A stretch of 37,938 nucleotides of DNA from a virus. Lineage: Duplodnaviria > Heunggongvirae > Uroviricota > Caudoviricetes. How positions within the stretch are numbered: the stretch's first letter is position 1; every line of letters begins with the position of its first letter. Shown here one piece after another: positions 1,133 through 23,134 of the stretch. Under the pieces are notes generated by a model. It had not been told where the DNA came from, ran no database searches, and saw only the letters and a program-made list of their open reading frames with translations. A program made the translations under genes and the position numbers. The DNA lies in the IMG/VR virus record IMGVR_UViG_2529292758_000013; one strand, given 5' to 3'.

Positions 1133-2464
1133 TCACTGAAGTAAAAAAACTTTTAAAGCATCTTTCACAATATTTGTTGGTTCACCAATACCGCCACCAC
1201 CTTTTAAAAAATGGTATTCACTCATTTCTGCCCATTGTCTTTTTATATTTTCCTCAGCAGGTAAAAGAGATGAGTTTTCAGATAAGTATTTGTAAACTAT
1301 TCCAAATATAGCATATTCATAATTATCTACATTATATTCACTTGTTTGATATGAAAATTTAGATAAACCAAACAATTTCATGATTGATTGAGCATCAACT
1401 TTATCTTCAAGAAAGTTGAGAGCTAACTCTCGGTTAAAAGTGTAGATTATTATCGCTAGAGTCCTGTAATAACAATATCCATAAATATATTTGTTGCTAA
1501 TTTTGTCGCCTGATAGTAGTTGGTATATTTCAACATATCTAGCAAGTGTTTCAACCTCACGTAATGATAATTTTCTACTTTCAATGAACTGTAAGAAAAT
1601 ATCTTCGCTGGCTTCTACTGCAGCGGTCAGCCTTTCAGATTGCTCACATAGCATCATCCAATGATTTTTGGAAGTTAAAGTGTCATTATAATTATCTTCC
1701 TTAAAGGTAACAGGAAGGCTGTATGTAAATTTTATAAATTTGTCAAGATAACGGTTGGAGTCTACAGAAGAGCCATAGATATGATTTATGGATGCTTTTA
1801 GTTGAGTTGTGTTTGCAATTAATAAAAAGTTAATGTTTTTTATATCAAAAACATGTTTTATATTTTCAATAATAGAAATGGCAAAACTAGGCTTACATCT
1901 GTCTAACTCATCTATAATTATTGTTAGTTTACTTTCTCCAGCTAATTTGGTTAGTACTTCTTTTAGAGCAAGAACGTTCTTTTGTGCCTCGATATGATCT
2001 TCTAACAGAGCCTCGATGGTTCCATCGATAGCTGAATTTGCAGCGTCTTTGATAACCTCTTCAAATTCCTCATTAATTTCATCCGCATTTTGTTTTAATA
2101 CCCAACCAGCACCAGCTTTGAGTACAGTCTTAAGTCCGAATCTGAGGGCTGGCAATGCCTTAGATATTAATTCCTTTTTTTCATCGCTATTATATAGAGC
2201 TGCAATTGCGGCCATTATTGTAAGTATGGGAGCATCGTTGTGATCTTCAGTAAAAGCATCTATATAAACTACTTTATGATTGGTCGAGTTTATTTCAATT
2301 AAGGATGCTAACTTTTTTGAAAACTCTGTTTTTCCAGTCCCCCAGTCCCCATCTATGACCATAGGTGAAACAGGAATATTAGACTCTAGCAAACTTATTA
2401 TTTTTTCTGCAATGGCTTTTCTTTTATATTCATCACGTATATCGAAAGTTATATCTGTGCTCAT
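1133..2464 (-). CDS. KAP-family P-loop NTPase (accessory cargo gene)
   Basis: Walker A GDWGTGKT and KAP-type Walker B IIIDELDRC seen in translation; SD-like AAGGA upstream of ATG at 2464; visibly AT-rich compared with the phage backbone. Confidence 0.75.
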   Translation of the reverse strand: MSTDITFDIRDEYKRKAIAEKIISLLESNIPVSPMVIDGDWGTGKTEFSKKLASLIEINSTNHKVVYIDAFTEDHNDAPILTIMAAIAALYNSDEKKELISKALPALRFGLKTVLKAGAGWVLKQNADEINEEFEEVIKDAANSAIDGTIEALLEDHIEAQKNVLALKEVLTKLAGESKLTIIIDELDRCKPSFAISIIENIKHVFDIKNINFLLIANTTQLKASINHIYGSSVDSNRYLDKFIKFTYSLPVTFKEDNYNDTLTSKNHWMMLCEQSERLTAAVEASEDIFLQFIESRKLSLREVETLARYVEIYQLLSGDKISNKYIYGYCYYRTLAIIIYTFNRELALNFLEDKVDAQSIMKLFGLSKFSYQTSEYNVDNYEYAIFGIVYKYLSENSSLLPAEENIKRQWAEMSEYHFLKGGGGIGEPTNIVKDALKVFLLQ

Positions 2465-4175: not shown

Positions 4176-4409
4176 ATGCTGACGAAAGAACCATCATTTG
4201 CATCGCTGCTGGTAAAACAAAGTCCGGCAATGCACTACGGTCACGGCTGGATTTATTTACCTTGTGGGAAAAAGTGGCATCCAAGTTTTGAATTACAACC
4301 CCGGCAACAGGCTTACCGGGGAAGAAATAAAAAGCGATTCCTACAAAGATTTATGGTTAACGTGGCAAACAACCTGCGAACCAAGCGAAAAGTTTTTCTT
4401 GGAAGCTGA
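4176..4409 (+). CDS. Hypothetical early protein (77 aa); its N-terminal segment is duplicated at 4996-5055
   Basis: SD GAGGTG 3 nt before ATG 4176, directly after the cII stop; C-terminal part overlaps the reverse-strand ORF 4357-4815. Confidence 0.4.
   Translation: MLTKEPSFASLLVKQSPAMHYGHGWIYLPCGKKWHPSFELQPRQQAYRGRNKKRFLQRFMVNVANNLRTKRKVFLGS
4193..4252. repeat. 60-bp direct repeat, copy 1 (59/60 identical to 4996-5055)
   Basis: ATCATTTGCATCGCTGCTGGTAAAACAAAG[T/C]CCGGCAATGCACTACGGTCACGGCTGGAT read at both positions. Confidence 0.9.
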
Positions 4410-4815
4410 GGTTTACATCGTCAACCCGACCACAGGCAATAGCAGCTCTTTTGTAGGCAGGGTTTAACAAAGATCCGAATGTTGTGGAGTCAGAGTGATG
4501 CAAAGCTTTCAATTTTTGTGCAATGAACTGTGGAGACAATTCATCCTCGGCGTAAAGCAACTCACCATATTGTCGGCTTTGTACGCTTGCTCGTTCCGCA
4601 ATAATAGCTGGTTGCCATACAAGTTGGATTGTTGCGATTACAACAACAGGAAAAGCGAACAACCATTCCAGACCTGTATTAGCAAATACAGCTGTTCCGC
4701 TTATAAGTTGGATTGCTGTCATTAATTTATCAGCTCGACCATGGAACGTTGCTGTCATTAGTTCAAGGTAATAACAGTAGTGTAATTGGAAGTATTCGGA
4801 GCTTTGTTTAGTCAT
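4357..4815 (-). CDS. Hypothetical protein with a hydrophobic (probably membrane) segment; reverse-strand cargo inside the early region
   Basis: 152-aa ORF on the opposite strand to the early operon; hydrophobic stretch LISGTAVFANTGLEWLFAFPVVVIATIQLVW; bounded by the 60-bp direct repeats. Confidence 0.45.
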   Translation of the reverse strand: MTKQSSEYFQLHYCYYLELMTATFHGRADKLMTAIQLISGTAVFANTGLEWLFAFPVVVIATIQLVWQPAIIAERASVQSRQYGELLYAEDELSPQFIAQKLKALHHSDSTTFGSLLNPAYKRAAIACGRVDDVNLSFQEKLFAWFAGCLPR

Positions 4816-6262: not shown

Positions 6263-7116
6263 GCACCATCCTGAAATGGGCGGGTAATAAAACCGCCATT
6301 ATGCCGGAACTGAAAAAATACCTTCCTGCTGGCCCGCGACTGGTTGAACCTTTCGCGGGTTCTTGTGCTGTGATGATAGAGACGGATTACCCCAGCTATC
6401 TTGTTGCGGATATTAATCCTGATTTAATCAACCTCTATAAAAAGGTTGCTGCTGATTGCGAGGCGTTTATATCTCGTGCCAGAGCTTTATTTGAGGAAGC
6501 AAACAGGGAGGTGGCTTATTACAACATAAGGCAGGAGTTTAATTACTCCACTGAAATTACTGATTTCATGAAAGCGGTATATTTCCTGTATCTCAATCGT
6601 CATGGTTACCGTGGGTTATGTCGCTATAACAAGAGCGGGCATTTCAACATTCCCTACGGGAATTATAAAAATCCGTATTTCCCTGAAAAAGAAATTCGCA
6701 AATTTGCAGAAAAAGCCCAGCGAGCAACGTTTATCTGCGCCAGCTTTGATGAAACGCTGGCGATGTTGAAGGCGGGGGATGTGGTGTATTGCGATCCGCC
6801 TTATGACGGTACGTTTTCCGGCTATCACACTGATGGCTTCACTGAGGATGACCAGTATCACCTGGCATCCGTTCTTGAACATCGATCATCTGAAGGTCAT
6901 CCGGTCATTGTTTCTAACAGTGACACATCCCTGATTCGTTCGCTGTATCGCAATTTCACTCACCACTACATCAAGGCAAAACGCAGCATCGGCGTGTCGG
7001 CTGGCGAGAGTAAATCTGCAACAGAAATCATTGCTGTTTCCGGGGCGCGCTGCTGGGTGGGATTTGATCCTTCGCGTGGCGTGGATAGTTCTGCTGTGTA
7101 CGAGGTGCGTGTATGA
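6259..7116 (+). CDS. dam: DNA adenine (N6) methyltransferase, Dam-like
   Basis: DPPY catalytic motif ([10 protein letters not shown]), N-terminal KWAGNK and FAGSCAV SAM-binding-like motifs; ATG at 6259 overlaps the upstream stop (ATGA). Confidence 0.85.
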
Positions 7117-9527
7117 GTCATGACGATATGAGCAACTCTAGCGGCTTTAACGAGGCCGCTGCAGCATTTTCATGGAACGGCCCGAAAAAGGCCATTAACC
7201 CTTATCTGGACCCGGCGGAAGTTGCGCCGGAGTCTGCACTTTCAAACATGATCACTCTGTACGCTGCCGATAACGAGCAGGAACAGCTGCGCCGCGATGC
7301 ACTGAGTGAGCAGGTCTGGGAGCGTTATTTCTTTAATGAATCCCGTGATCCTGTCCAGCGCGAAATGGAGCAGGATAATCTCATTAGTCGGGCAAAGCTG
7401 GCGCATGAGCAGCAGCGTTTTAACCCGGACATGGTCATTCTGGCGGACGTCAGCGCCCAGCCCACCCACATCAGCAAGCCGCTGATGCAACGTATCGAAT
7501 ACTTCAGCAGCCTGGGCAGGCCAAAGGCTTATTCCCGCTATTTGCGTGAGACGATTAAGCCATGTCTGGAGCGACTGGAGTATGTACGCGACAGTCAGCT
7601 ATCCGCTTCTTTCCGTTTTATGGCAAGCCATCAAGGGCTTGAGGGCCTGCTGATCCTGCCTGAAATGAGTCAGGATCAGGTAAAACGCCTGTCCACCCTG
7701 GTAGCAGCGCATATGAGCATGTGTCTTGAGGCCGCTTGTGGTGATTTGTATGCCTCCGATGACGTTAAGCCAGAAGAAATCCGCAAGACATGGGAAAAGG
7801 TGGCAGCGGAAACCCTGCGTCTGGATGTTATCCCGCCTGCGTTTGAGAAACTCCGTCGGAAAAGAAACCGCCGCAAACCCGTGCCCTATGAACTCATACC
7901 GGGTTCGCTGGCACGTATGCTTTGCGCCGACTGGTGGTATCGAAAATTGTGGAAGATACGTTGCGAATGGCGGGAAGAGCAGTTGCGTGCTGTCTGCCTG
8001 GTCAGCAAAAAAGCATCTCCCTATGTCAGCTATGAAGCAGTGACGCATAAACGTGAGCAGCGCCGCAAGTCGCTGGAGTTTTTCCGTTCTCATGAACTGG
8101 TGAACGAAGACGGCGACACGCTGGATATGGAAGACGTGGTAAACGCCAGCAGCAGCAACCCGGCGCACCGCCGCAATGAGATGATGGCCTGTGTTAAAGG
8201 TCTGGAGCTTATCGCGGAAATGCGTGGTGACTGCGCCGTTTTCTACACCATTACCTGTCCGTCACGTTTCCATTCTACGCTCAATAACGGCAGACCAAAC
8301 CCAACCTGGACAAATGCGACGGTAAGACAAAGCAGTGATTATCTGGTCGGCATGTTTGCTGCATTTCGTAAGGCGATGCACAAAGCCGGATTGCGCTGGT
8401 ATGGCGTGCGGGTGGCTGAGCCGCATCATGACGGCACAGTTCACTGGCACCTGTTGTGTTTTATGCGCAAAAAAGACCGCCGCGCCATTACTGCTTTGTT
8501 GCGTAAGTTTGCCATTCGTGAAGACCGCGAGGAGCTGGGTAATAACACGGGGCCACGCTTTAAGTCTGAGCTGATAAACCCGCGCAAAGGAACGCCGACA
8601 AGCTACATCGCGAAATATATCAGCAAGAACATTGACGGGCGTGGTCTGGCTGGCGAGATCAGCAAGGAAACGGGTAAATCTCTGCGTGATAACGCTGAAT
8701 ACGTGAATGCCTGGGCGTCTTTGCATCGTGTTCAGCAATTCCGCTTCTTTGGTATTCCGGGACGTCAGGCTTACCGTGAACTTCGCTTGCTGGCTGGTCA
8801 GGCGGCAAGGCAACAGGGTGACAAAAAAGCAGGTGCGCCGGTACTGGATAACCCGCGTCTTGATGCCATTCTGGCTGCTGCTGATGCTGGTTGTTTTGCC
8901 ACCTACATCATGAAGCAGGGCGGCGTACTGGTTCCCCGTAAATATCACCTCATCAGAACCGCTTATGAAATCAACGAAGAGCCGACCGCCTATGGCGATC
9001 ACGGTATTCGTATTTATGGCATCTGGTCACCCATTGCAGAGGGCAAGATCTGCACTCATGCAGTGAAGTGGAAAATGGTTCGTAAAGCCGTTGACGTTCA
9101 GGAGGCGGCAGCCGACCAGGGCGCTTGCGCCCCTTGGACTCGTGGCAATAACTGTCCCCTTGCTGAAAATTTGTACCAACAAGGGAAAGACAAATCAGCT
9201 GATGGAGATACCAGAACGGATATCACCCGTATGGATGACAAGGAGTTGCACGATTACCTGCACAGTATGAGCAAAAAAGAGCGCCGGGAACTGGCAGCAA
9301 GATTACGCCTGGTTAAACCGAAACGACGTAAAGACTACAAACAGCGAATTACAGAGTATCAGCGTCAGCAGCTCGTCTATGAACTGAAGTCCAGAGGATT
9401 TGATGGCAGCGAGAAAGAAGTCGATTTGCTCCTTCGCGGTGGCAGTATTCCATCAGGAGCAGGCCTGCGTATCTTCTATCGGAACCAGCGTCTGAAGGAA
9501 GATGATAAGTGGCGGAACCTGTATTAA
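7113..9527 (+). CDS. A: Replication initiation endonuclease, P2 gene A type (rolling-circle Rep, HUH class)
   Basis: HUH motif ([10 protein letters not shown]) and tyrosine motif [12 protein letters not shown]; 804 aa; ATGA overlap with dam; position after the early operon. Confidence 0.88.
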
Positions 9528-10325: not shown

Positions 10326-10434
10326 ATTTACCAATAATAACCTTACAATGTACACTACCTATTGAATTTTCCATAGTTGGCCTTTGGCTCTACTTACCAT
10401 CTATGTTTATGTATTTTATCAAAATGGACTAAAA

Positions 10435-12327
10435 ATGCACAATACGTACATCAAAGACTATATAGAATATTACCTTAGCCTTAAAACTGAACCTCAATAC
10501 GCCATTATGCTTAAAGGTGCTTGGGGATCAGGTAAAACTTGGTTCATTGAACGAGTTCTTGAAGAATATAAGCAAAAGCATTCAGAGTTCAAATTTCTTA
10601 AAGTGAGTTTGTATGGCGTCAACTCTATTGAGCAGATTGAAGATGAGTTCTATCGTCAACTTCATCCTATTCTATCAAACAAAGCCCTTATCTTTGGTGC
10701 AAATGTACTAAAAAATACGCTTAAGGCTACTTTCAAGATCGATTTCAATGGCGATAATAAGTCTGACGTAGATGTCAATGCCAGTGTCCCCACTATTAAT
10801 CTTAGCGACTTTAGCAGAGAACCAGATGGTTTTGTGCTGGTCTTTGATGATATCGAGAGAGCTGGTATAGATTTACCAATCTTATTTGGATATATAAATC
10901 ACTTTGTAGAAGTAAACGGATACAAAGCGATCCTGGTTGCCAATGAAGAAGAAATAATCAACAGAGAAAAGCGAATAAATAATGATGATGAGAAATCTAG
11001 CAGTGAATACATAAGAACAAAAGAAAAGCTTGTAGGTAAAACATTTGAAGTAACGTCAGATTTACATAGTGCTTGTAATATTTTCTTGGGCGTAATTAGT
11101 AGTTTACACGTAGCTAATATATTTAAAGAAGATATGCAGACCATAGAACACCTCTATGTGTCGGCGAAATATAATAATCTAAGACATTTGAGGCAGTTCT
11201 TTCTTGATGTACAACGCATCATTTCCCTTTTGGGAGATAAATATGTCAGCAACGACGATTTTATGAAAGTATTTTTCCAGCAGTTATTAATTTTCTCGAT
11301 GGAGTACCGGGGAGGGAACCTTAACTACGAGGATTTCAATTCAATCGGCAATGTAAATTATAGTATGTTTTTAGATAAAGGGCGTGCCAAAACTAAGTAT
11401 GATATGATCGTCGAGAAATATTCATCACCTGTATTAACCGAGACGTTACTGGATGGTGCGTACTGGAGAGAGCTAATCTGTGATGGAAAGGTAACGCATG
11501 ATCTTCTCGCTCAGCTGGATATTACGCGATTTTTTAGAAGCACCGATGCCCAAGCATGGGAGTATTTGTGGAACTATCGAGAACTTAATGAAACTATTCT
11601 TAATGAACAGTACGCCATTGCCAAGGATAATCTATTTTCAGGTAAGATCACTTCCTTAGGTGAACTCCTGATGACCGCGAGTATTTTGCTGGCATTGGCG
11701 AAAGAAGGTTTAACCACAGATGCTGTTGATGACATTATAAATGAGACAAAACATCATATAGATATTTATTACAATGGATTAGGACCTGAAGATATACATC
11801 AGGAGTATGCGCAAAGACATTATAATGAGTTAATGGCATGGCGTGGCTTTGGTTTTCTTGACAGGGATAGCGATGAATTCAAACTCATTATTGAGCATAT
11901 TAAGATAGCGCAGAAGAAACGGTTTGATGAATCAATTCCGGAGTTTGCATTGAAGTTCAGCGATGAGTTGCAAAGAGGAAATTTATCGTTTGTATCTGAA
12001 TTGTGTCATTCTAATAATAGGCAGCTAAATCTTCATAACGTGCCTTTTTTACACTTGGTTTCTCCTGAAGTTTTCATTGAAAGCTATAGGAAACTTGACC
12101 CAATCATCATGAGGAAACTGGCATTTAGCTTGAGGGATCGTTATTCTGATAGGGATGCCAGAACCAGACTGACCGAAGAATACAACTGGTTGATTAGCCT
12201 AAAAGAGATAGCTGTAGATTTCACTCAAAACGCAGCCAATAACTCCTTTCAGGTTTTTCATGTAAAGTTTTTTATTGACTATGCACTAACTAATGCAATC
12301 AAATTATTTACTGAGGGAACTGATTAA
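10435..12327 (+). CDS. KAP-like P-loop NTPase, second divergent copy (630 aa from ATG 10435; an in-frame TTG at 10384 is possible)
   Basis: Walker A GAWGSGKT and Walker B-like VLVFDDIER in a layout parallel to the 1133-2464 protein; AT-rich; followed by a GC-rich hairpin terminator. Confidence 0.7.
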   Translation: MHNTYIKDYIEYYLSLKTEPQYAIMLKGAWGSGKTWFIERVLEEYKQKHSEFKFLKVSLYGVNSIEQIEDEFYRQLHPILSNKALIFGANVLKNTLKATFKIDFNGDNKSDVDVNASVPTINLSDFSREPDGFVLVFDDIERAGIDLPILFGYINHFVEVNGYKAILVANEEEIINREKRINNDDEKSSSEYIRTKEKLVGKTFEVTSDLHSACNIFLGVISSLHVANIFKEDMQTIEHLYVSAKYNNLRHLRQFFLDVQRIISLLGDKYVSNDDFMKVFFQQLLIFSMEYRGGNLNYEDFNSIGNVNYSMFLDKGRAKTKYDMIVEKYSSPVLTETLLDGAYWRELICDGKVTHDLLAQLDITRFFRSTDAQAWEYLWNYRELNETILNEQYAIAKDNLFSGKITSLGELLMTASILLALAKEGLTTDAVDDIINETKHHIDIYYNGLGPEDIHQEYAQRHYNELMAWRGFGFLDRDSDEFKLIIEHIKIAQKKRFDESIPEFALKFSDELQRGNLSFVSELCHSNNRQLNLHNVPFLHLVSPEVFIESYRKLDPIIMRKLAFSLRDRYSDRDARTRLTEEYNWLISLKEIAVDFTQNAANNSFQVFHVKFFIDYALTNAIKLFTEGTD

Positions 12328-12390
12328 CATTTTGTTGATTAACATAGGTAATATTATTAGAAGTACTAGACATGGTCAGTAAAATTATTA

Positions 12391-12420
12391 AAGTCCGCTT
12401 CGCTCGAAGCGGACTTTGTG
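12391..12420. terminator. Hairpin terminator after the KAP-like gene, T-rich on both sides
   Basis: AAGTCCGCTTCG...CGAAGCGGACTT perfect inverted repeat followed by TTTGTGCTTT. Confidence 0.5.
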
Positions 12421-12612
12421 CTTTATAAAAACGAGAGTTTTGTTTTTCAAGCGGTCATTCGGTTACGGGATTTCACTTCCCCCGTAAGTGCATGACTATG
12501 CCGCATGAGATCGCATGATCGTTTGCGGATCGTTTTTGCCAAGGTCCGCCAGAACTGGCGGGCTTTTGCGTAGATCATGCAGGTGCATGAAAACCACTAC
12601 ATAAAGTGGGCA

Positions 12613-12631
12613 GGCGTGGCGGGGATACGAG
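12613..12631. other. cos-like cohesive-end sequence (GGCGTGGCGGGGATACGAG) inside a GC-rich hairpin-dense non-coding region
   Basis: First 13 nt identical to the 186 cohesive end as I recall it (GGCGTGGCGGGGAAAGCAT; P2 GGCGAGGCGGGGAAAGCAC); located between the right-end genes and the portal gene. Confidence 0.5.
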
Positions 12632-12850
12632 CGCGCGCAACGAGGTGAAATAGCAAAACTCGGCACAGCCTACGGCCCGCTAGCGGCTTCAAATTGAAAT
12701 GGTGAGGTGCAGCAGCAAAAAAACCGCCCCACAGGAAGTTGTTGAGGTTGTTTATTGAGGGAATTGGCTTAAGCGGTAAAACACAAACATTGCAACTTGT
12801 GCATGAAATTGATACATTGTGCGTAATGTGTCTATATTGCGGGGTGTTTT

Positions 12851-13522
12851 ATGGCTTTCAGAGCGGAAGAAGCAGCAGCATCGAATTTCGAAAATGCTTA
12901 CAGATATCTAGTTCCACAAGGTTCAAATCAGGAGATGCGTTCGAAAGTTAGGGCGAAGCTCAAAGAAATTGTTGAAGAATGTGGGCCAGTAGTGGATGGG
13001 TATCCAGCATGGCATCCTTTTTTGCTGGAAAGAGATAAAGCTATTTGGGCGCCTATGACTCCCAATAATACTCCTAGCTTTAAATACCTGGACCACACGG
13101 TCTATTTCAGGAACGGCATTCTTACCTGTCCTTATGGTCATGGGGTTGATGAATTTATAGCTGGTATAAAACGTCTAAAGCACACGGATGCCCATTTCTC
13201 TATTGAGAAGATTGATGACGTTGTGCTTTATAATGACAACGCCGTCCCGTTGTTAATAAAATGCCATTGGCTTATTTCGGAAGATATGGAAGAGGATGGC
13301 ACCATTCCAGCAAAAGCAGCAATTGGATTGATGCTTGAAAGCGAGGTTCCTAACTGGCGGCATGCAGTTTATTGTGAAAATTGGGAAGATATGCGCGGGC
13401 AGTTGATGGGATATCCGCACGGTGCCAGATCATCTCTATTTGTTAATCAGCAGACAGGACAGAAAATGAAAAACTTCTGGAATCAGCTGATTAAGACCGG
13501 AATTCTTGGGGAAGAGCGATAA
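12851..13522 (+). CDS. Hypothetical protein (223 aa), cargo gene between cos and the portal gene
   Basis: Uninterrupted ORF with candidate promoter TTGATA-N18-TATATT at 12809-12838; no motif recognised; hairpin after the stop. Confidence 0.55.
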   Translation: MAFRAEEAAASNFENAYRYLVPQGSNQEMRSKVRAKLKEIVEECGPVVDGYPAWHPFLLERDKAIWAPMTPNNTPSFKYLDHTVYFRNGILTCPYGHGVDEFIAGIKRLKHTDAHFSIEKIDDVVLYNDNAVPLLIKCHWLISEDMEEDGTIPAKAAIGLMLESEVPNWRHAVYCENWEDMRGQLMGYPHGARSSLFVNQQTGQKMKNFWNQLIKTGILGEER

Positions 13523-13574
13523 TTTCTTGAGGCTTAGCTGCGCCTTTAACAAGCAGAGGCGCTGCTTTTTAAAT

Positions 13575-14624
13575 TTAGCTATCGTTGTTTGTGTCTATTC
13601 CCAGCGTGTAGGGCTCGAAGCGGATCACCTCTTTACCTAGCCAGTAATTCAGCTCCTGCAGCCGCTTTTGCAGCGGCATCAGTTCATTGCGGACGAAGAC
13701 ACGGCTCGCTTTTTCCACATCCCCAAAACCCCCAACATTATTCGGCATAATCCCCATCATTTGCGGTGGCACACGATGCGCCGCCATCATGTCATCCCGG
13801 CTCACGTTCTTGATGTTCAGAAACTCATCCTTCGCCGCGACTTCTGACAACGGGATGATCTGAAGCCCGTCCTTTTTGCCGTTAGGCGAGTACATAAACA
13901 GATTGCGGAAGTTACCTGGTCCTTTGGCGCTTTTCATCGCATTGCGGAGGTTGTTCACATCCTCCTGGTTTTGCGCGGCATCGGTCATGTACATGATGAA
14001 GCCTGCATGACTGCCGTTAATGTAATACTTTCGGCGGAACAGCGTGGCGGACTCGTTGAGCAGGGCTGACGGAATGGCAGAAAGATAACCTGGCAGGCCG
14101 TAGATCTCCTGGTTGATGTCCGGTTCCATCAGATGAAAGATGCTGCCTTTCGTAAACTGATACGGCTGCGTGGTCATGCCGTATTGCACAAACCAGTAGG
14201 TATCCAGGTCTAACCCGCGTCGGGTGTATTTTGCCAGGGCCGGTTCAAGGACGATAACTTCACCGAAGCGGTTCGTGCGTTTCTCCAGGTAGGCGTTACC
14301 AAATACCAGATAGTCCTGCACAAAACGTGAAAAAGCCTGCTGGCTGAGCAGCGGGTGAGGGATGTAGGTGCTGGTCAGAATGTTGCACTTTACTGCAATC
14401 GGTGAGCTGTGATGCACGGCGGCGCGAAAGGTGCGCGCCAGCCCGTCGAAACTCACTGGCGGCTCATACCAACGATCTGTCTGTACGCATTCCACATAGT
14501 CCAGCAGTTCGCGGCGGTCCAGAACAGGAACGGGATCACCGAAGCTGAATGCTTCGGCTGAAGTCTGGCTTTTATGCTGGATCTGGTTCGTCGACGCAGC
14601 GCGGTTCTTCTTACTCTTTCCCAT
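13575..14624 (-). CDS. Q: Portal protein, P2 gpQ type
   Basis: 349-aa ORF reading leftward away from the terminase gene with TGATG stop/start overlap; P2 Q-P gene order. Confidence 0.85.
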   Translation of the reverse strand: MGKSKKNRAASTNQIQHKSQTSAEAFSFGDPVPVLDRRELLDYVECVQTDRWYEPPVSFDGLARTFRAAVHHSSPIAVKCNILTSTYIPHPLLSQQAFSRFVQDYLVFGNAYLEKRTNRFGEVIVLEPALAKYTRRGLDLDTYWFVQYGMTTQPYQFTKGSIFHLMEPDINQEIYGLPGYLSAIPSALLNESATLFRRKYYINGSHAGFIMYMTDAAQNQEDVNNLRNAMKSAKGPGNFRNLFMYSPNGKKDGLQIIPLSEVAAKDEFLNIKNVSRDDMMAAHRVPPQMMGIMPNNVGGFGDVEKASRVFVRNELMPLQKRLQELNYWLGKEVIRFEPYTLGIDTNNDS

Positions 14625-16390
14625 CAAAAAATCTCCACAATATTGCTGGTATTGGCGGACTCGCCCTGCAGCGGTTCGTTAAACAGTGCGTGCATGGTTG
14701 CCCAGGCCAGATCGGCATGGCTGGCTTCTTCGCTGCGGCTGGCTTCATAGGTCGGGCGGTTGCCGCTGGCGGTGGTGGCGCGACGGATTGCCATAAATGA
14801 CTGCGCTATGTCGGTGTGTCCGGCGTCAAACTCCAGACGGCGGTGACTGATAATGTCGTAGGCCTTGAGTACCAGGGCGTTTTTAACGTTGGGGTTGTAG
14901 ACAAACTCCCGGACGGCTGGAAAAAACGCTTTCACGTTCTCGTAAACCCCGTGACCAACGCCGGTTGAGTCGATACCGATATAAGTCACGTTGTACTGTT
15001 CGGTAAGTTTTTTGATGGCGTCAGCCTGGGCGCGGAAGTCCATCCCGCGCCACTGGTGACGCTCAAGAATGCGGAACTTACCACCCGGCACGGCTGGCGG
15101 TGCCACCACCACGCATCCAGCGCTGTCGCCGTTTTGCGTACCTTTTGCCGGGTCATAACCGATCCACACTTCGCGCCAGCCAAACGGGCGCAGTGCCAGT
15201 GCATGAAAGTCGGTCCAGACTTCCCAACTGTCCACCATGCACGCCTGCAGCTCGCTGAGCGGAAACACGGACGCGAGATCGTCCACAAACTCGCACATCA
15301 GCAGGTTCTGGTATTCGTCCGGGCTGTACTCCATGCGTAGCTGGTCGAGGTCGAACAGGTTACAGCCGCCGCGCACCGCATCTTCCACGGTGACTATCTG
15401 GCGGTACTGCCCGTCTGCGCACAGCAGGCCGGGGGCCAGATTGCTGTGGGACAGGTCGATGTCCACCTTATCGGCTTTGTTGCGCCCACGGTTGAACAGC
15501 GCACCGGACCAGAACGGATAAGCACTGTGTGTCAGACTGGATGGCGTGGAAAAATAGGTTTGTCGCCATTTTTTGTGAATAGCCATACCGGAAGCCACTT
15601 TGCGCAGCTCCTGGAATTTCGGTATCCAGAAATATTCATCCAGATACAGGTTGCCGTGGTAACTCTGGGCCGTGCGGGCATTGGTGCCGAGGAAGTAAAG
15701 CGTGGCCCCGTTAGGAAGCACCATCGGATCGCCTTTCAGCTCCACCTCCACTTCTTTGGCAAAGTCGATGATGTACTGTTTAAAGACGTGGGCCTGAGCC
15801 TTGCTGGCAGAAAGGAAAATCTGGTTACGCCCGGTCAGCAGGGCGTCAATCAGGGCTTCACGGGCAAAGTAAAAGGTCGCGCCGATCTGGCGTGACTTCA
15901 GCAGGTTGCGGATGCGGTTGGTTTTTCCGGCTTCCCACCAGTGGCGCTGGTAGTTGAACATAGAGGAATTGAAGATTTCTTCCAGTTTCTCAATCTGTTC
16001 ATCGGTGAAAACATTCTTTTCCGGCTGACGACGTGGGCCTTTGTTGCGGTTGGCAACGTTAGGGTTTAAGTCGGCTTCGTTGCCGCCATTGTTAAACTTG
16101 CCGATCCGCGCGTGGCGCTCAGACTGGCGTGCCAGCAGGTCAATTTCTTTGAAATCTTTCCCTTCTTTGTGCTCCTTCATAATGAGCTGGCAGTAGCGTG
16201 CGGCGGTGGTGAGCTGCATCTGATCCAGCGGCCCATAGTCACCCCACTTGTCGCGTTTTTTCCAGCTGTGAACGGTTGCAACTTTCTCGCCCAGCATTTC
16301 AGCAATGCGGGCGACGCGGTATCCCTGAAAGTACAGCAGCATGGCCTGCCGACGGGGATCGAGGTCTGCGGGTGTCAGTGTGGTGTTCAT
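14624..16390 (-). CDS. P: Terminase large (ATPase) subunit, P2 gpP type
   Basis: 588-aa ORF with terminase-like segments (SRQIGATFYFAREA..., LYLDEYFWIP); divergent from the O-N-M-L operon as in P2. Confidence 0.88.
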   Translation of the reverse strand: MNTTLTPADLDPRRQAMLLYFQGYRVARIAEMLGEKVATVHSWKKRDKWGDYGPLDQMQLTTAARYCQLIMKEHKEGKDFKEIDLLARQSERHARIGKFNNGGNEADLNPNVANRNKGPRRQPEKNVFTDEQIEKLEEIFNSSMFNYQRHWWEAGKTNRIRNLLKSRQIGATFYFAREALIDALLTGRNQIFLSASKAQAHVFKQYIIDFAKEVEVELKGDPMVLPNGATLYFLGTNARTAQSYHGNLYLDEYFWIPKFQELRKVASGMAIHKKWRQTYFSTPSSLTHSAYPFWSGALFNRGRNKADKVDIDLSHSNLAPGLLCADGQYRQIVTVEDAVRGGCNLFDLDQLRMEYSPDEYQNLLMCEFVDDLASVFPLSELQACMVDSWEVWTDFHALALRPFGWREVWIGYDPAKGTQNGDSAGCVVVAPPAVPGGKFRILERHQWRGMDFRAQADAIKKLTEQYNVTYIGIDSTGVGHGVYENVKAFFPAVREFVYNPNVKNALVLKAYDIISHRRLEFDAGHTDIAQSFMAIRRATTASGNRPTYEASRSEEASHADLAWATMHALFNEPLQGESANTSNIVEIF

Positions 16391-22381: not shown

Positions 22382-23134
22382 TTAGATACTGAGATTTTTT
22401 TTACATAATAGTATAAATTCACAGTACATGTTATAGATTTTAGTCGCACATCTGTTAGCTTTTTTTATGGTTTCTATCTTTTCAGGGGGGAGGCTCAATA
22501 AGGCAATCTCTCTGTCGCTGAGCATTGAAATAAACTCGCTGCTGCCTAAATACCCGGAGTTGCAGGCTAAAAAATAATTAAAGTTAGTTAACTCTTTGTG
22601 TAGTTCGTTAGATTTTATTTCTATTTCATTATCATGAAAATGATGTATGGCCTTTCCCCATTCATGGCAGTATGTTGTCATGTCTTTAAGGTTTGAGTCA
22701 TGAAATCTATTGCCAAAGTCATGGCTTTTTAGAAAGTCTATTGAGTTTGAATCTGGTGGTAATAATTTTATAAACTCTTTATATAGATTAATGTCAGAGT
22801 TCCTTTGTCTTTCTTTCTTTTCTCTGTTTTCTTTAATTTTAATACTGTCAAAGAACCATTCTGGCACTTTACTTAATAAGTTATAGGTTAACCCCAAAGC
22901 AATTAGAGTGATGGCTACCATCGTGCTTGGATTACCATTATCTATTTTTATTATATCAATATCTGCATTGAATTTTTTATTATATATATCAATTATAAAA
23001 TTAAGTGCCATGAGATAATATGGAATTGGTAGCGCAATTATGCTTAGCCCAGTTATAACTAAAGCCCAAGTTATTTTATTACTAAACTCAGGAAATATTA
23101 CATTGATTATTTTTTTAACAATATACCTTTTCAT
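22382..23134 (-). CDS. Hypothetical protein with two N-terminal transmembrane helices (250 aa), AT-rich cargo gene between tail genes S and V
   Basis: SD AGGGAG 7 nt before ATG 23134 (minus strand); TM segments ITWALVITGLSIIALPIPYYLMALNFII and MVAITLIALGLTYNLL; long Lys/Asn/Ile-rich soluble domain. Confidence 0.6.
   Translation of the reverse strand: MKRYIVKKIINVIFPEFSNKITWALVITGLSIIALPIPYYLMALNFIIDIYNKKFNADIDIIKIDNGNPSTMVAITLIALGLTYNLLSKVPEWFFDSIKIKENREKKERQRNSDINLYKEFIKLLPPDSNSIDFLKSHDFGNRFHDSNLKDMTTYCHEWGKAIHHFHDNEIEIKSNELHKELTNFNYFLACNSGYLGSSEFISMLSDREIALLSLPPEKIETIKKANRCATKIYNMYCEFILLCKKNLSI

Follow-up and report, generated by a model that had tools for sequence, protein, structure and literature searches.

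The DNA studied here, a stretch of 37,938 nucleotides recorded as IMGVR_UViG_2529292758_000013 and referred to below as the window, is a 100% match to a P2-like prophage that lies beside rcdA in Escherichia coli NC101, NGF1 and relatives. We analysed a gene for a 223-residue protein that it carries between the cos site and the portal gene Q. The window reads int, a KAP NTPase gene, CI and further genes up to A, followed by a small open reading frame (ORF), DinI, a second KAP NTPase gene and the 223-aa ORF; Q and P come next on the minus strand, and after them O, N, M, L and the tail genes. The features that define the locus are the following:

7113-9527: replication gene A
10384-12327, plus strand: KAP-family P-loop NTPase of 647 aa (PADLOC candidate PDC-S49, E = 1e-160; phrog_4740)
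12613-12631, plus strand: cos of P2 type (cohesive-end sequence GGCGTGGCGGGGATACGAG), which bounds the slot on the left
12748-13608, plus strand: inserted cassette (moron) of promoter/operator, gene and terminator, delimited by blastn against an empty site
12851-13522, plus strand: coding sequence of the 223-aa protein WP_000885505.1 ('hypothetical protein'; ATG start, 25.5 kDa)
13540-13572, plus strand: terminator-like hairpin GCGCCT...AGGCGC with a T run, found by terminator scan between the convergent 223-aa gene and Q
13575-14627, minus strand: portal gene Q (Pfam Phage_portal, E = 3e-18), right boundary of the slot

A single-gene cassette in the cos-Q interval

The 223-aa ORF is a real gene. 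It has the position and length given in the initial annotation, and its start codon is fixed, since the N-terminus MAFRAEEA matches the family consensus MAFRADEA. Comparison with a 92%-identical relative indicates purifying selection (ratio of non-synonymous to synonymous substitutions, dN/dS, 0.14); against more distant copies the synonymous sites are saturated. We found 203 full-length homologues of the protein. In Enterobacter P2-like prophages (L084-L087, 8001-8723) the homologue has been called as 240 aa from an upstream start; MAFRAEEA at 8052, the consensus N-terminus of the family, indicates 223 aa as the true length.

On the left, the slot is bounded by cos. GGCGTGGCGGGGATACGAG and the flank upstream of it, AGGTGCATGAAAACC..., can be aligned with the cohesive end of P2 and the flank at its right end, and the cos sequence is kept in eight related prophage loci (L102-L104 and L084-L087 among them), which bears out the cos assigned at the outset. 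Beyond the CGCGCG of the cos core, loci with different cargo diverge within about 10 bp. Between the end of cos (12631) and the Q stop (13575) we measured 943 bp, compared with about 170 bp in P2, where cosL occupies 1-19, the Q stop lies at 187 and only the terminator tQ stands between them; the interval had been put at about 0.9 kb, and as short in P2, by the initial annotation.

The extent of the insertion follows from a blastn comparison with the empty-slot prophage of E. coli 7_33_46A (L102). Homology covers 12561-12747 and resumes only at 13609-13700, so that about 860 bp (12748-13608) replace about 70 bp of the empty cos-Q site. The inserted segment takes in the diverged last codons of Q, and its G+C content is about 43%, compared with 52-60% in the structural genes. 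It is thus inserted between conserved genes where a relative has an empty site, as expected of a moron. No flanking direct repeats that would point to transposition were found. Taken together, this is a self-contained accessory cassette with its own promoter, one gene and a terminator, placed in the Q-proximal sub-slot of the hotspot between gpA and gpQ; its promoter and its terminator are both predictions.

For the terminator, the scan places the hairpin proper at 13540-13562, followed by TGCTTTTT. The hairpin noted earlier after the stop codon is therefore present, but folded in a 66-nt context it is no more stable than shuffled sequences (z = 0.07). In P2 the terminator tQ occupies the equivalent place after Q. 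A search of Rfam over 12200-13700 gave no credible RNA.

Carriage of the gene is rare. It is present in 23 of 5,426 complete E. coli genomes, about 1,265 of which have related Q/cos sequence. One further copy, in E. coli MS20659 (NZ_CP082073, 3001-4895), is interrupted by IS30 after nucleotide 340 and is the only disrupted one among the 24 E. coli carriers. P2 itself and most E. coli P2-like prophages are without the gene, and a tblastn search of 50,697 deposited phage genomes yielded no copy. With this sporadic occurrence, the empty slot in a similar prophage and the low G+C content, the earlier view of an accessory gene is confirmed, and the competing idea of a packaging component conserved throughout the P2 family does not apply.

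The slot lies in the gpA-gpQ hotspot

The hotspot of P2 has been defined as the whole gpA-gpQ interval, 'adjacent to the cos site', and over one third of the hotspot systems tested were active against phages (Rousset et al. 2022, PMC9122126). A 2026 survey bears out that the gpA-gpQ interval is the main P2 defence hotspot (NAR 2026, PMC13586616). The 223-aa gene lies between A (7113-9527) and Q (13575-14627), and its presence varies among related prophages, which have either empty or alternatively filled slots. The initial annotation had called the site an atypical place for cargo. This holds only relative to P2 itself, because the hotspot was already published with these boundaries and other P2-like elements fill the same slot. 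It had also considered that cos might be wrongly assigned and the gene simply be part of the A-Q hotspot; the assignment is right, and the gene is nevertheless inside the hotspot, which spans cos.

Comparison of the cos-Q region with P2 and related prophages revealed, in addition to empty slots, several other occupants. E. coli H22 and the isolated phage Cartapus have a 232-aa DUF4145 protein here, which matches the PADLOC model of PD-T7-4 as a distant relative only (E = 1.4e-6). The slot of EC5502 holds a pair of DUF2158-like and DUF6953 genes, and that of Salmonella phage SEN8 a 332-aa protein with an HNH endonuclease. In one viral contig a 54%-identical homologue of the 223-aa protein shares the slot with a 979-aa Schlafen/STAND NTPase. 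In the enterobacterial slots the gene adjoining cos reads towards Q, as the 223-aa gene does. In Ralstonia phage RSA1 (NC_009382, 353-2917) the slot is filled by a PAAR/DUF4123/effector/Imm52 cassette; the phage thus carries a type VI secretion effector-immunity module.

The KAP NTPase gene at 10384-12327 lies on the A side of cos, outside the cassette, and constitutes a neighbouring, separable cargo with a G+C content of 34-39% and its own bidirectional terminator hairpin (12389-12418). We considered whether the 223-aa protein might be the second component of a two-gene system with this NTPase (PDC-S49). In E. coli the KAP gene lies upstream in all 23 carriers, and Table S5A of Rousset et al. 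2022 (PMC9122126) lists WP_000885505 together with it in the arrangement 'hypothetical + DinI + KAP_NTPase + hypothetical'. However, 524 bp lie between the two genes and hold both the KAP terminator and cos, the same KAP gene is accompanied by the DUF4145 gene instead in E. coli H22 (L103), and the family as a whole has no conserved neighbour. In Enterobacter, close homologues (80% identity) lie beside Q, and the cargo on the A side is of four different kinds, namely two unknown pairs, a methylase with a type II restriction enzyme, and GAPS4. Neither obligate co-occurrence nor operon linkage is thus seen, and since the genes are separable, a joint system is largely refuted and in our estimate highly improbable. 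The independent exchange of KAP and slot genes instead indicates that the hotspot consists of two compartments, which lie on either side of cos.

The protein represents an orphan family and fold

The 223-aa protein has no match in Pfam, NCBIfam or PHROGs, and the best E value in a profile search against PDB sequences was 0.47, which is noise. This agrees with the earlier statement that it contains no recognisable motifs, and the same holds for PADLOC (see below). It is a soluble protein with no hydrophobic segment. Structure prediction and fold search, which had been suggested at the outset, resulted in a confident AlphaFold2 model (121 sequences; predicted local distance difference test score, pLDDT, 93.6; predicted template modelling score, pTM, 0.90) for which no neighbour was found in the PDB or BFVD. 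The model consists of one compact domain, in which two N-terminal helices are followed by an alpha/beta body. A ribbon-helix-helix N-terminus was considered and rejected, as it has no Pfam support and the model is a single compact domain.

An exhaustive profile search of 1.84 billion proteins yielded 292 family representatives at 50% identity. Nearly all members are about 220 aa long, single-domain and begin with MAFRADEA, and every database name given to them is 'hypothetical'. A sister subfamily of 699 proteins of about 311 aa is clearly homologous (hhalign probability 100%, E = 4e-58) and has an additional beta-rich C-terminal domain of about 95 residues and of unknown fold. Its members are 58-65% identical from Morganella, Aeromonas and Vibrio to Sphingomonas and Caulobacter.

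Invariant residues of the family are F3, R4, G45, P52, W54, H55, P56, D81, T83, T92, C93, E176, W178, R182, G187, P189, G191, R193, S194 and S195. Members share the invariant blocks G-P-V-V-x-x-Y-P-x-W-H-P, L-D-H-T, T-C-P-Y, E-x-W and G-x-P-H-G-x-R-S-S-L-F-V-N-Q-x-T-G, which persist in insertion-bearing plasmid variants and in the sister subfamily. In the high-confidence model His82 and Cys93 flank a beta-hairpin formed by strands 84-86 and 89-92, and should therefore be cross-strand neighbours. Together with His55, Asp81, Glu176 and Arg193-Ser194-Ser195 they form a pattern that looks like a catalytic or metal/ligand site, although any chemistry assigned to it would be speculative. Both the family and its fold are orphans.

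Palindromic boxes overlap a conserved putative promoter

Upstream of the gene we identified the following elements, all on the plus strand:

12790-12795, plus strand: conserved -35 element TTGCAA (TTGAYn in relatives), with the TT invariant in the upstream alignment
12797-12806, plus strand: predicted operator box 1, TTGTGCATGA, with the family palindrome TTRYGCRYAA, inside the promoter spacer
12809-12838, plus strand: promoter-like site TTGATA-N18-TATATT of the initial annotation, with 10 of 12 matches in the promoter scan
12813-12818, plus strand: conserved -10 element TACATT (TATTTT in relatives) from the upstream alignment; the family-wide consensus is tATTTT directly before box 2
12817-12826, plus strand: predicted operator box 2, TTGTGCGTAA, a perfect TTRYGCRYAA directly after the -10 and over the expected transcription start
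12841-12846, plus strand: Shine-Dalgarno-like GGGGTG, 4 nt from the ATG (relatives have GAGGT), in a conserved GTGAGGT block

The initial annotation had proposed TTGATA-N18-TATATT as the promoter. The sequence is there, but it probably does not act as the functional promoter: relatives do not share its TATATT, and with only 12 nt between this -10 and the ATG the transcript would be without the GGGGTG Shine-Dalgarno sequence. It is possibly a secondary promoter. In a scan of 1.4 kb we counted 5 promoter-like sites, compared with 2.5 +/- 1.7 in shuffled sequences. In contrast, an alignment of 12 upstream regions places the conserved -35/-10 pair, with its 17-nt spacer, about 20 bp further upstream. 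The enterobacterial upstream regions, which belong to proteins 54-92% identical, consist of conserved islands amid variable DNA.

The boxes overlap this positionally conserved promoter. Box 2 follows box 1 by exactly 20 bp, which puts both on one helix face, and the two form the only YGCRYRA-N13-YGCRYRA pair in the window, where 0.13 would be expected by chance. Across the family the strict core YGCRYRA is found in 114 of 122 unique upstream regions as compared with 357 of 2,520 background windows, and box pairs in 67 of the 122 as compared with 14 of the 2,520. Spacings are 20 bp in 86 cases, 40 bp in 31 and 60 bp in 4. The extended consensus TTRYGCRYAA is a 10-bp palindrome that follows a T-run and occurs in arrays of two to four boxes. 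Of 52 upstream regions in the sister subfamily, 50 have a different box, YACGYRA (TTACGTAA-like, an 8-bp palindrome), at a spacing of 18 or 36 bp, and either box type is essentially absent upstream of the other subfamily's genes. The conserved array upstream of the family is a new observation; a literature search on the box sequences returned nothing relevant.

As both the sequence and the phase of the boxes vary with the protein clade, and as no other gene is linked to them, the simplest reading is that the protein binds the boxes and represses its own promoter. Operator sites that lie over a gene's own promoter and co-vary with its product are the arrangement expected under autoregulation, and comparison of the upstream regions suggests it here; from the array we infer both the binding and the repression. 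DnaA boxes, binding sites for NsrR, PurR or MarA/SoxS, and an extended -10 were considered as explanations of the boxes and rejected, as the invariant positions do not fit. Scanning IMG/VR for strict box pairs gave 9 matches, which is about chance level and says nothing on a regulon; one is a locus of the family, and most of the others are short tandem or direct repeats.

An operator array of this kind could also mean that the protein chiefly serves the element as a transcription factor or in its maintenance, for example by modulating genes of the host or the element, and has no direct immune role. The co-variation of the palindromes with the protein clade would fit, as would the plasmid copies that adjoin replication and partition genes. 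Yet in the window the only box pair is the one at the gene's own promoter, no target or partner gene is conserved across hosts from Alphaproteobacteria to Verrucomicrobia, a protein controlling only itself has no evident use, and the protein has no recognisable DNA-binding domain. We regard such a role as unlikely.

Distribution on mobile genetic elements

The family is confined to mobile genetic elements. Species representatives with the gene number 147 of 185,579 and belong to the Alpha-, Beta- and Gammaproteobacteria, the Verrucomicrobiota and the Bacteroidota; it is also found in 55 IMG/VR loci and on 200 plasmids, 158 of them conjugative. Clustering of flanking ORFs over 79 genome loci did not reveal a conserved neighbour, and no small ORF is conserved in 120 unique upstream regions; the gene therefore stands alone. 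This also differs from a type II toxin-antitoxin system, which would have two adjacent, co-transcribed genes.

In P2-like prophages the copies adjoin Q directly. In Klebsiella HK97-type and Pectobacterium lambda-type prophages the gene lies between the lysis cassette and an HNH/TerS or Nu1-like gene, which is again a cos-proximal moron slot. Betaproteobacterial integrative and conjugative elements (ICEs) carry it between a Thoeris system and ParB_N/DUF932 backbone genes; the Thoeris system, of the ThsB TIR plus ThsA Macro type (L022/L024/L029, 5243-6688; PADLOC E = 6e-80 and 1e-127), stands upstream of it, with one or two small ORFs between the two. On IncFII-type plasmids the gene comes just after repA, and in a Marinobacter island the homologue adjoins a pyocin-like module. 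Neighbouring genes include ResIII/DEAD helicases, BrxC, MmeI, ThsA, DUF4917, integrases and TrbL, and on viral contigs portal (12) and terminase (10) genes. Members of the sister subfamily stand at the end of a primase-bearing Morganella island, and on plasmids of Aeromonas they have AbiTii and ParE genes around them. Cassette anatomy, accessory status, stand-alone distribution across element types, and the operator array with its change between subfamilies are shown by the comparisons made here.

The recurrent position beside cos in P2-like, HK97-like and lambda-like prophages raises the question of a function in packaging, in which the protein would bind next to cos and modulate packaging or hinder satellites and rival cos phages. 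The 10-mer GTGCATGAAA is indeed found exactly both in box 1 (12799-12808) and in the conserved cos flank (12583-12592), and may be shared by chance or because the protein also binds beside cos. The copy in the flank is kept in P2-like phages with or without the 223-aa gene and departs from the palindrome at three outer positions, for which reasons this single box may be fortuitous. The gene is moreover absent from most P2-like prophages and all the deposited phage genomes, and plasmids and ICEs, elements that have no cos, commonly carry it. A role at cos is accordingly given very little weight.

The same distribution could be taken to indicate an anti-defence or establishment factor, which helps the phage, ICE or plasmid that carries it to overcome host immunity on entry. 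The family is present on every class of transmissible element, comprising three prophage types, ICEs and the 158 conjugative plasmids; the ICE copies abut ParB_N/DUF932 backbone genes, the phage copies lie at the genome end beside cos, and the number of invariant polar residues hints at an enzyme whose target is universal. Such a protein might, for example, bind or enzymatically neutralise a defence component or signal. An argument for early expression from the polarity of P2 DNA injection was dropped, as no documentation of that polarity was found. On the other hand, the copies on IncFII-type plasmids directly follow repA, at the end remote from where the leading region is expected, and a self-repressed promoter of sigma-70 type fits steady-state expression in a resident element. 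The other occupants of the slot and the hotspot are defence-type genes, and none of the 50,697 deposited phage genomes has the gene. We consider anti-defence a decidedly improbable function, although not a negligible one.

Proposed role

We propose that the protein, probably as a dimer, binds the 10-bp palindromes TTRYGCRYAA over its own -35/-10 elements and transcription start. This binding would repress its own transcription and hold the protein at a low, steady level in the lysogen. The same DNA-binding activity, the site formed by His55/Asp81/His82/Cys93/Glu176/Arg193-Ser194-Ser195, or both, would then act in conflicts with incoming phages and other elements. The most likely role would be a single-gene anti-phage or exclusion function, as for the tin, old and PD-T7-4-like genes of the hotspot. 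We hold this reading, a single-gene exclusion or anti-phage factor that works through sequence-specific DNA binding and/or the conserved His/Asp/Cys/Arg-Ser-Ser site, tentatively and with slightly less than even confidence; the defence phenotype itself is speculative.

Several observations weigh against this proposal. No family of PADLOC-DB 2.0, a version that dates from 2023, matches the 223-aa protein at E <= 1, and PADLOC is also negative for a plasmid homologue. Neither Pfam nor the fold search with the AlphaFold model detected a helix-turn-helix (HTH), ribbon-helix-helix (RHH) or other DNA-binding domain or fold. As the protein also is mildly acidic (pI 5.8; family median 5.7), its binding to the boxes is a proposal drawn from comparative genomics, and a host factor could in principle occupy them instead; such a factor would have to differ between the two subfamilies. 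Genomic context cannot tell defence from anti-defence, because both kinds of gene share the same islands. Searching the literature by accession brought up no report on the protein, the supplementary tables of recent screens being covered only in part.

In a broader version of the proposal, the family would constitute a new class of single-protein, self-repressing and sequence-specific DNA-binding effectors with a fold not seen before, which serve immunity or counter-immunity on phages, ICEs and plasmids and whose operator specificity diversifies with the protein (10-bp palindromes at a 20-bp phase compared with 8-bp palindromes at an 18-bp phase). We regard this as possible but doubtful.

The site in the hotspot is already known and the gene has been catalogued as 'hypothetical', and the protein family is uncharacterised. 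What the analysis adds is a widespread mobile-element family without annotation, domain or structural neighbour, beside which a larger sister subfamily exists and for which the predicted operator and the invariant His/Asp/Cys/Arg-Ser-Ser residues provide a first biochemical handle. The two compartments of the hotspot matter for the way in which surveys delimit 'systems', as the gene has been lumped there with the KAP NTPase. Because hotspot genes are often anti-phage when tested, the cassette of 0.86 kb with a single gene is a cheap and well-defined candidate, and the gene is a good candidate for a function in anti-phage or inter-element conflict.

Further cargo in the prophage

Three other genes of the window are mentioned here as observations in their own right. 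A KAP NTPase of 443 aa (1133-2464, minus strand), between the integrase and the CI repressor, matches PDC-S20 (E = 2e-171) and has weaker similarity to PifA and QatA; one prophage thus has two different KAP NTPases at two cargo sites. A 250-aa ORF (22382-23134, minus strand) lies on the opposite strand between the tail/virion morphogenesis genes and the baseplate gene V, a position that corresponds to the Z/fun cargo locus of P2, and is an orphan cargo candidate with no match in Pfam or PADLOC. A 152-aa ORF in the early region (4357-4815, minus strand), on the opposite strand between two Fil-family genes, is likewise negative in Pfam and PADLOC.

Comparison with known systems

Mobile elements encode a number of self-repressing proteins that act on phased repeats, such as the ribbon-helix-helix repressors of the omega/CopG/Arc type, type II antitoxins and the controller proteins of restriction-modification systems. 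The 223-aa family would resemble them only in the way it works, with short palindromes in helical phase over its own promoter and with box sequence and spacing that change with the protein clade. It differs from them in that no RHH or HTH domain is detected and no gene for a partner toxin or enzyme is present.

Morons of temperate phages, a concept of Hendrix and Juhala exemplified by bor or lom of lambda, are a closer match for the cassette. It is likewise a promoter-gene-terminator unit, here as predicted, between conserved genes, with deviant composition and empty sites in relatives, and the lambdoid relatives carry the gene in the classic slot between lysis and terminase genes. Unlike typical morons, the family also is found on ICEs and plasmids and has a conserved operator array of its own.

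PD-T7-4 (PADLOC PDLC04109) was reportedly described by Vassallo and colleagues in 2022. The DUF4145 gene related to it occupies the same cos-Q slot, is convergent with Q, encodes a protein of similar size (232 aa) and stands as a single gene; in sequence it has no relationship to the 223-aa protein.

Finally, like the P2 hotspot cargo genes old and tin (PMC9122126, PMC13586616), the 223-aa gene lies between gpA and gpQ, varies among similar prophages, has its own (here predicted) expression signals and is low in G+C. Its protein has no relationship to Old or Tin, nor to any model in PADLOC, and while old and tin are found on the A side of cos, the 223-aa gene lies on the Q side.

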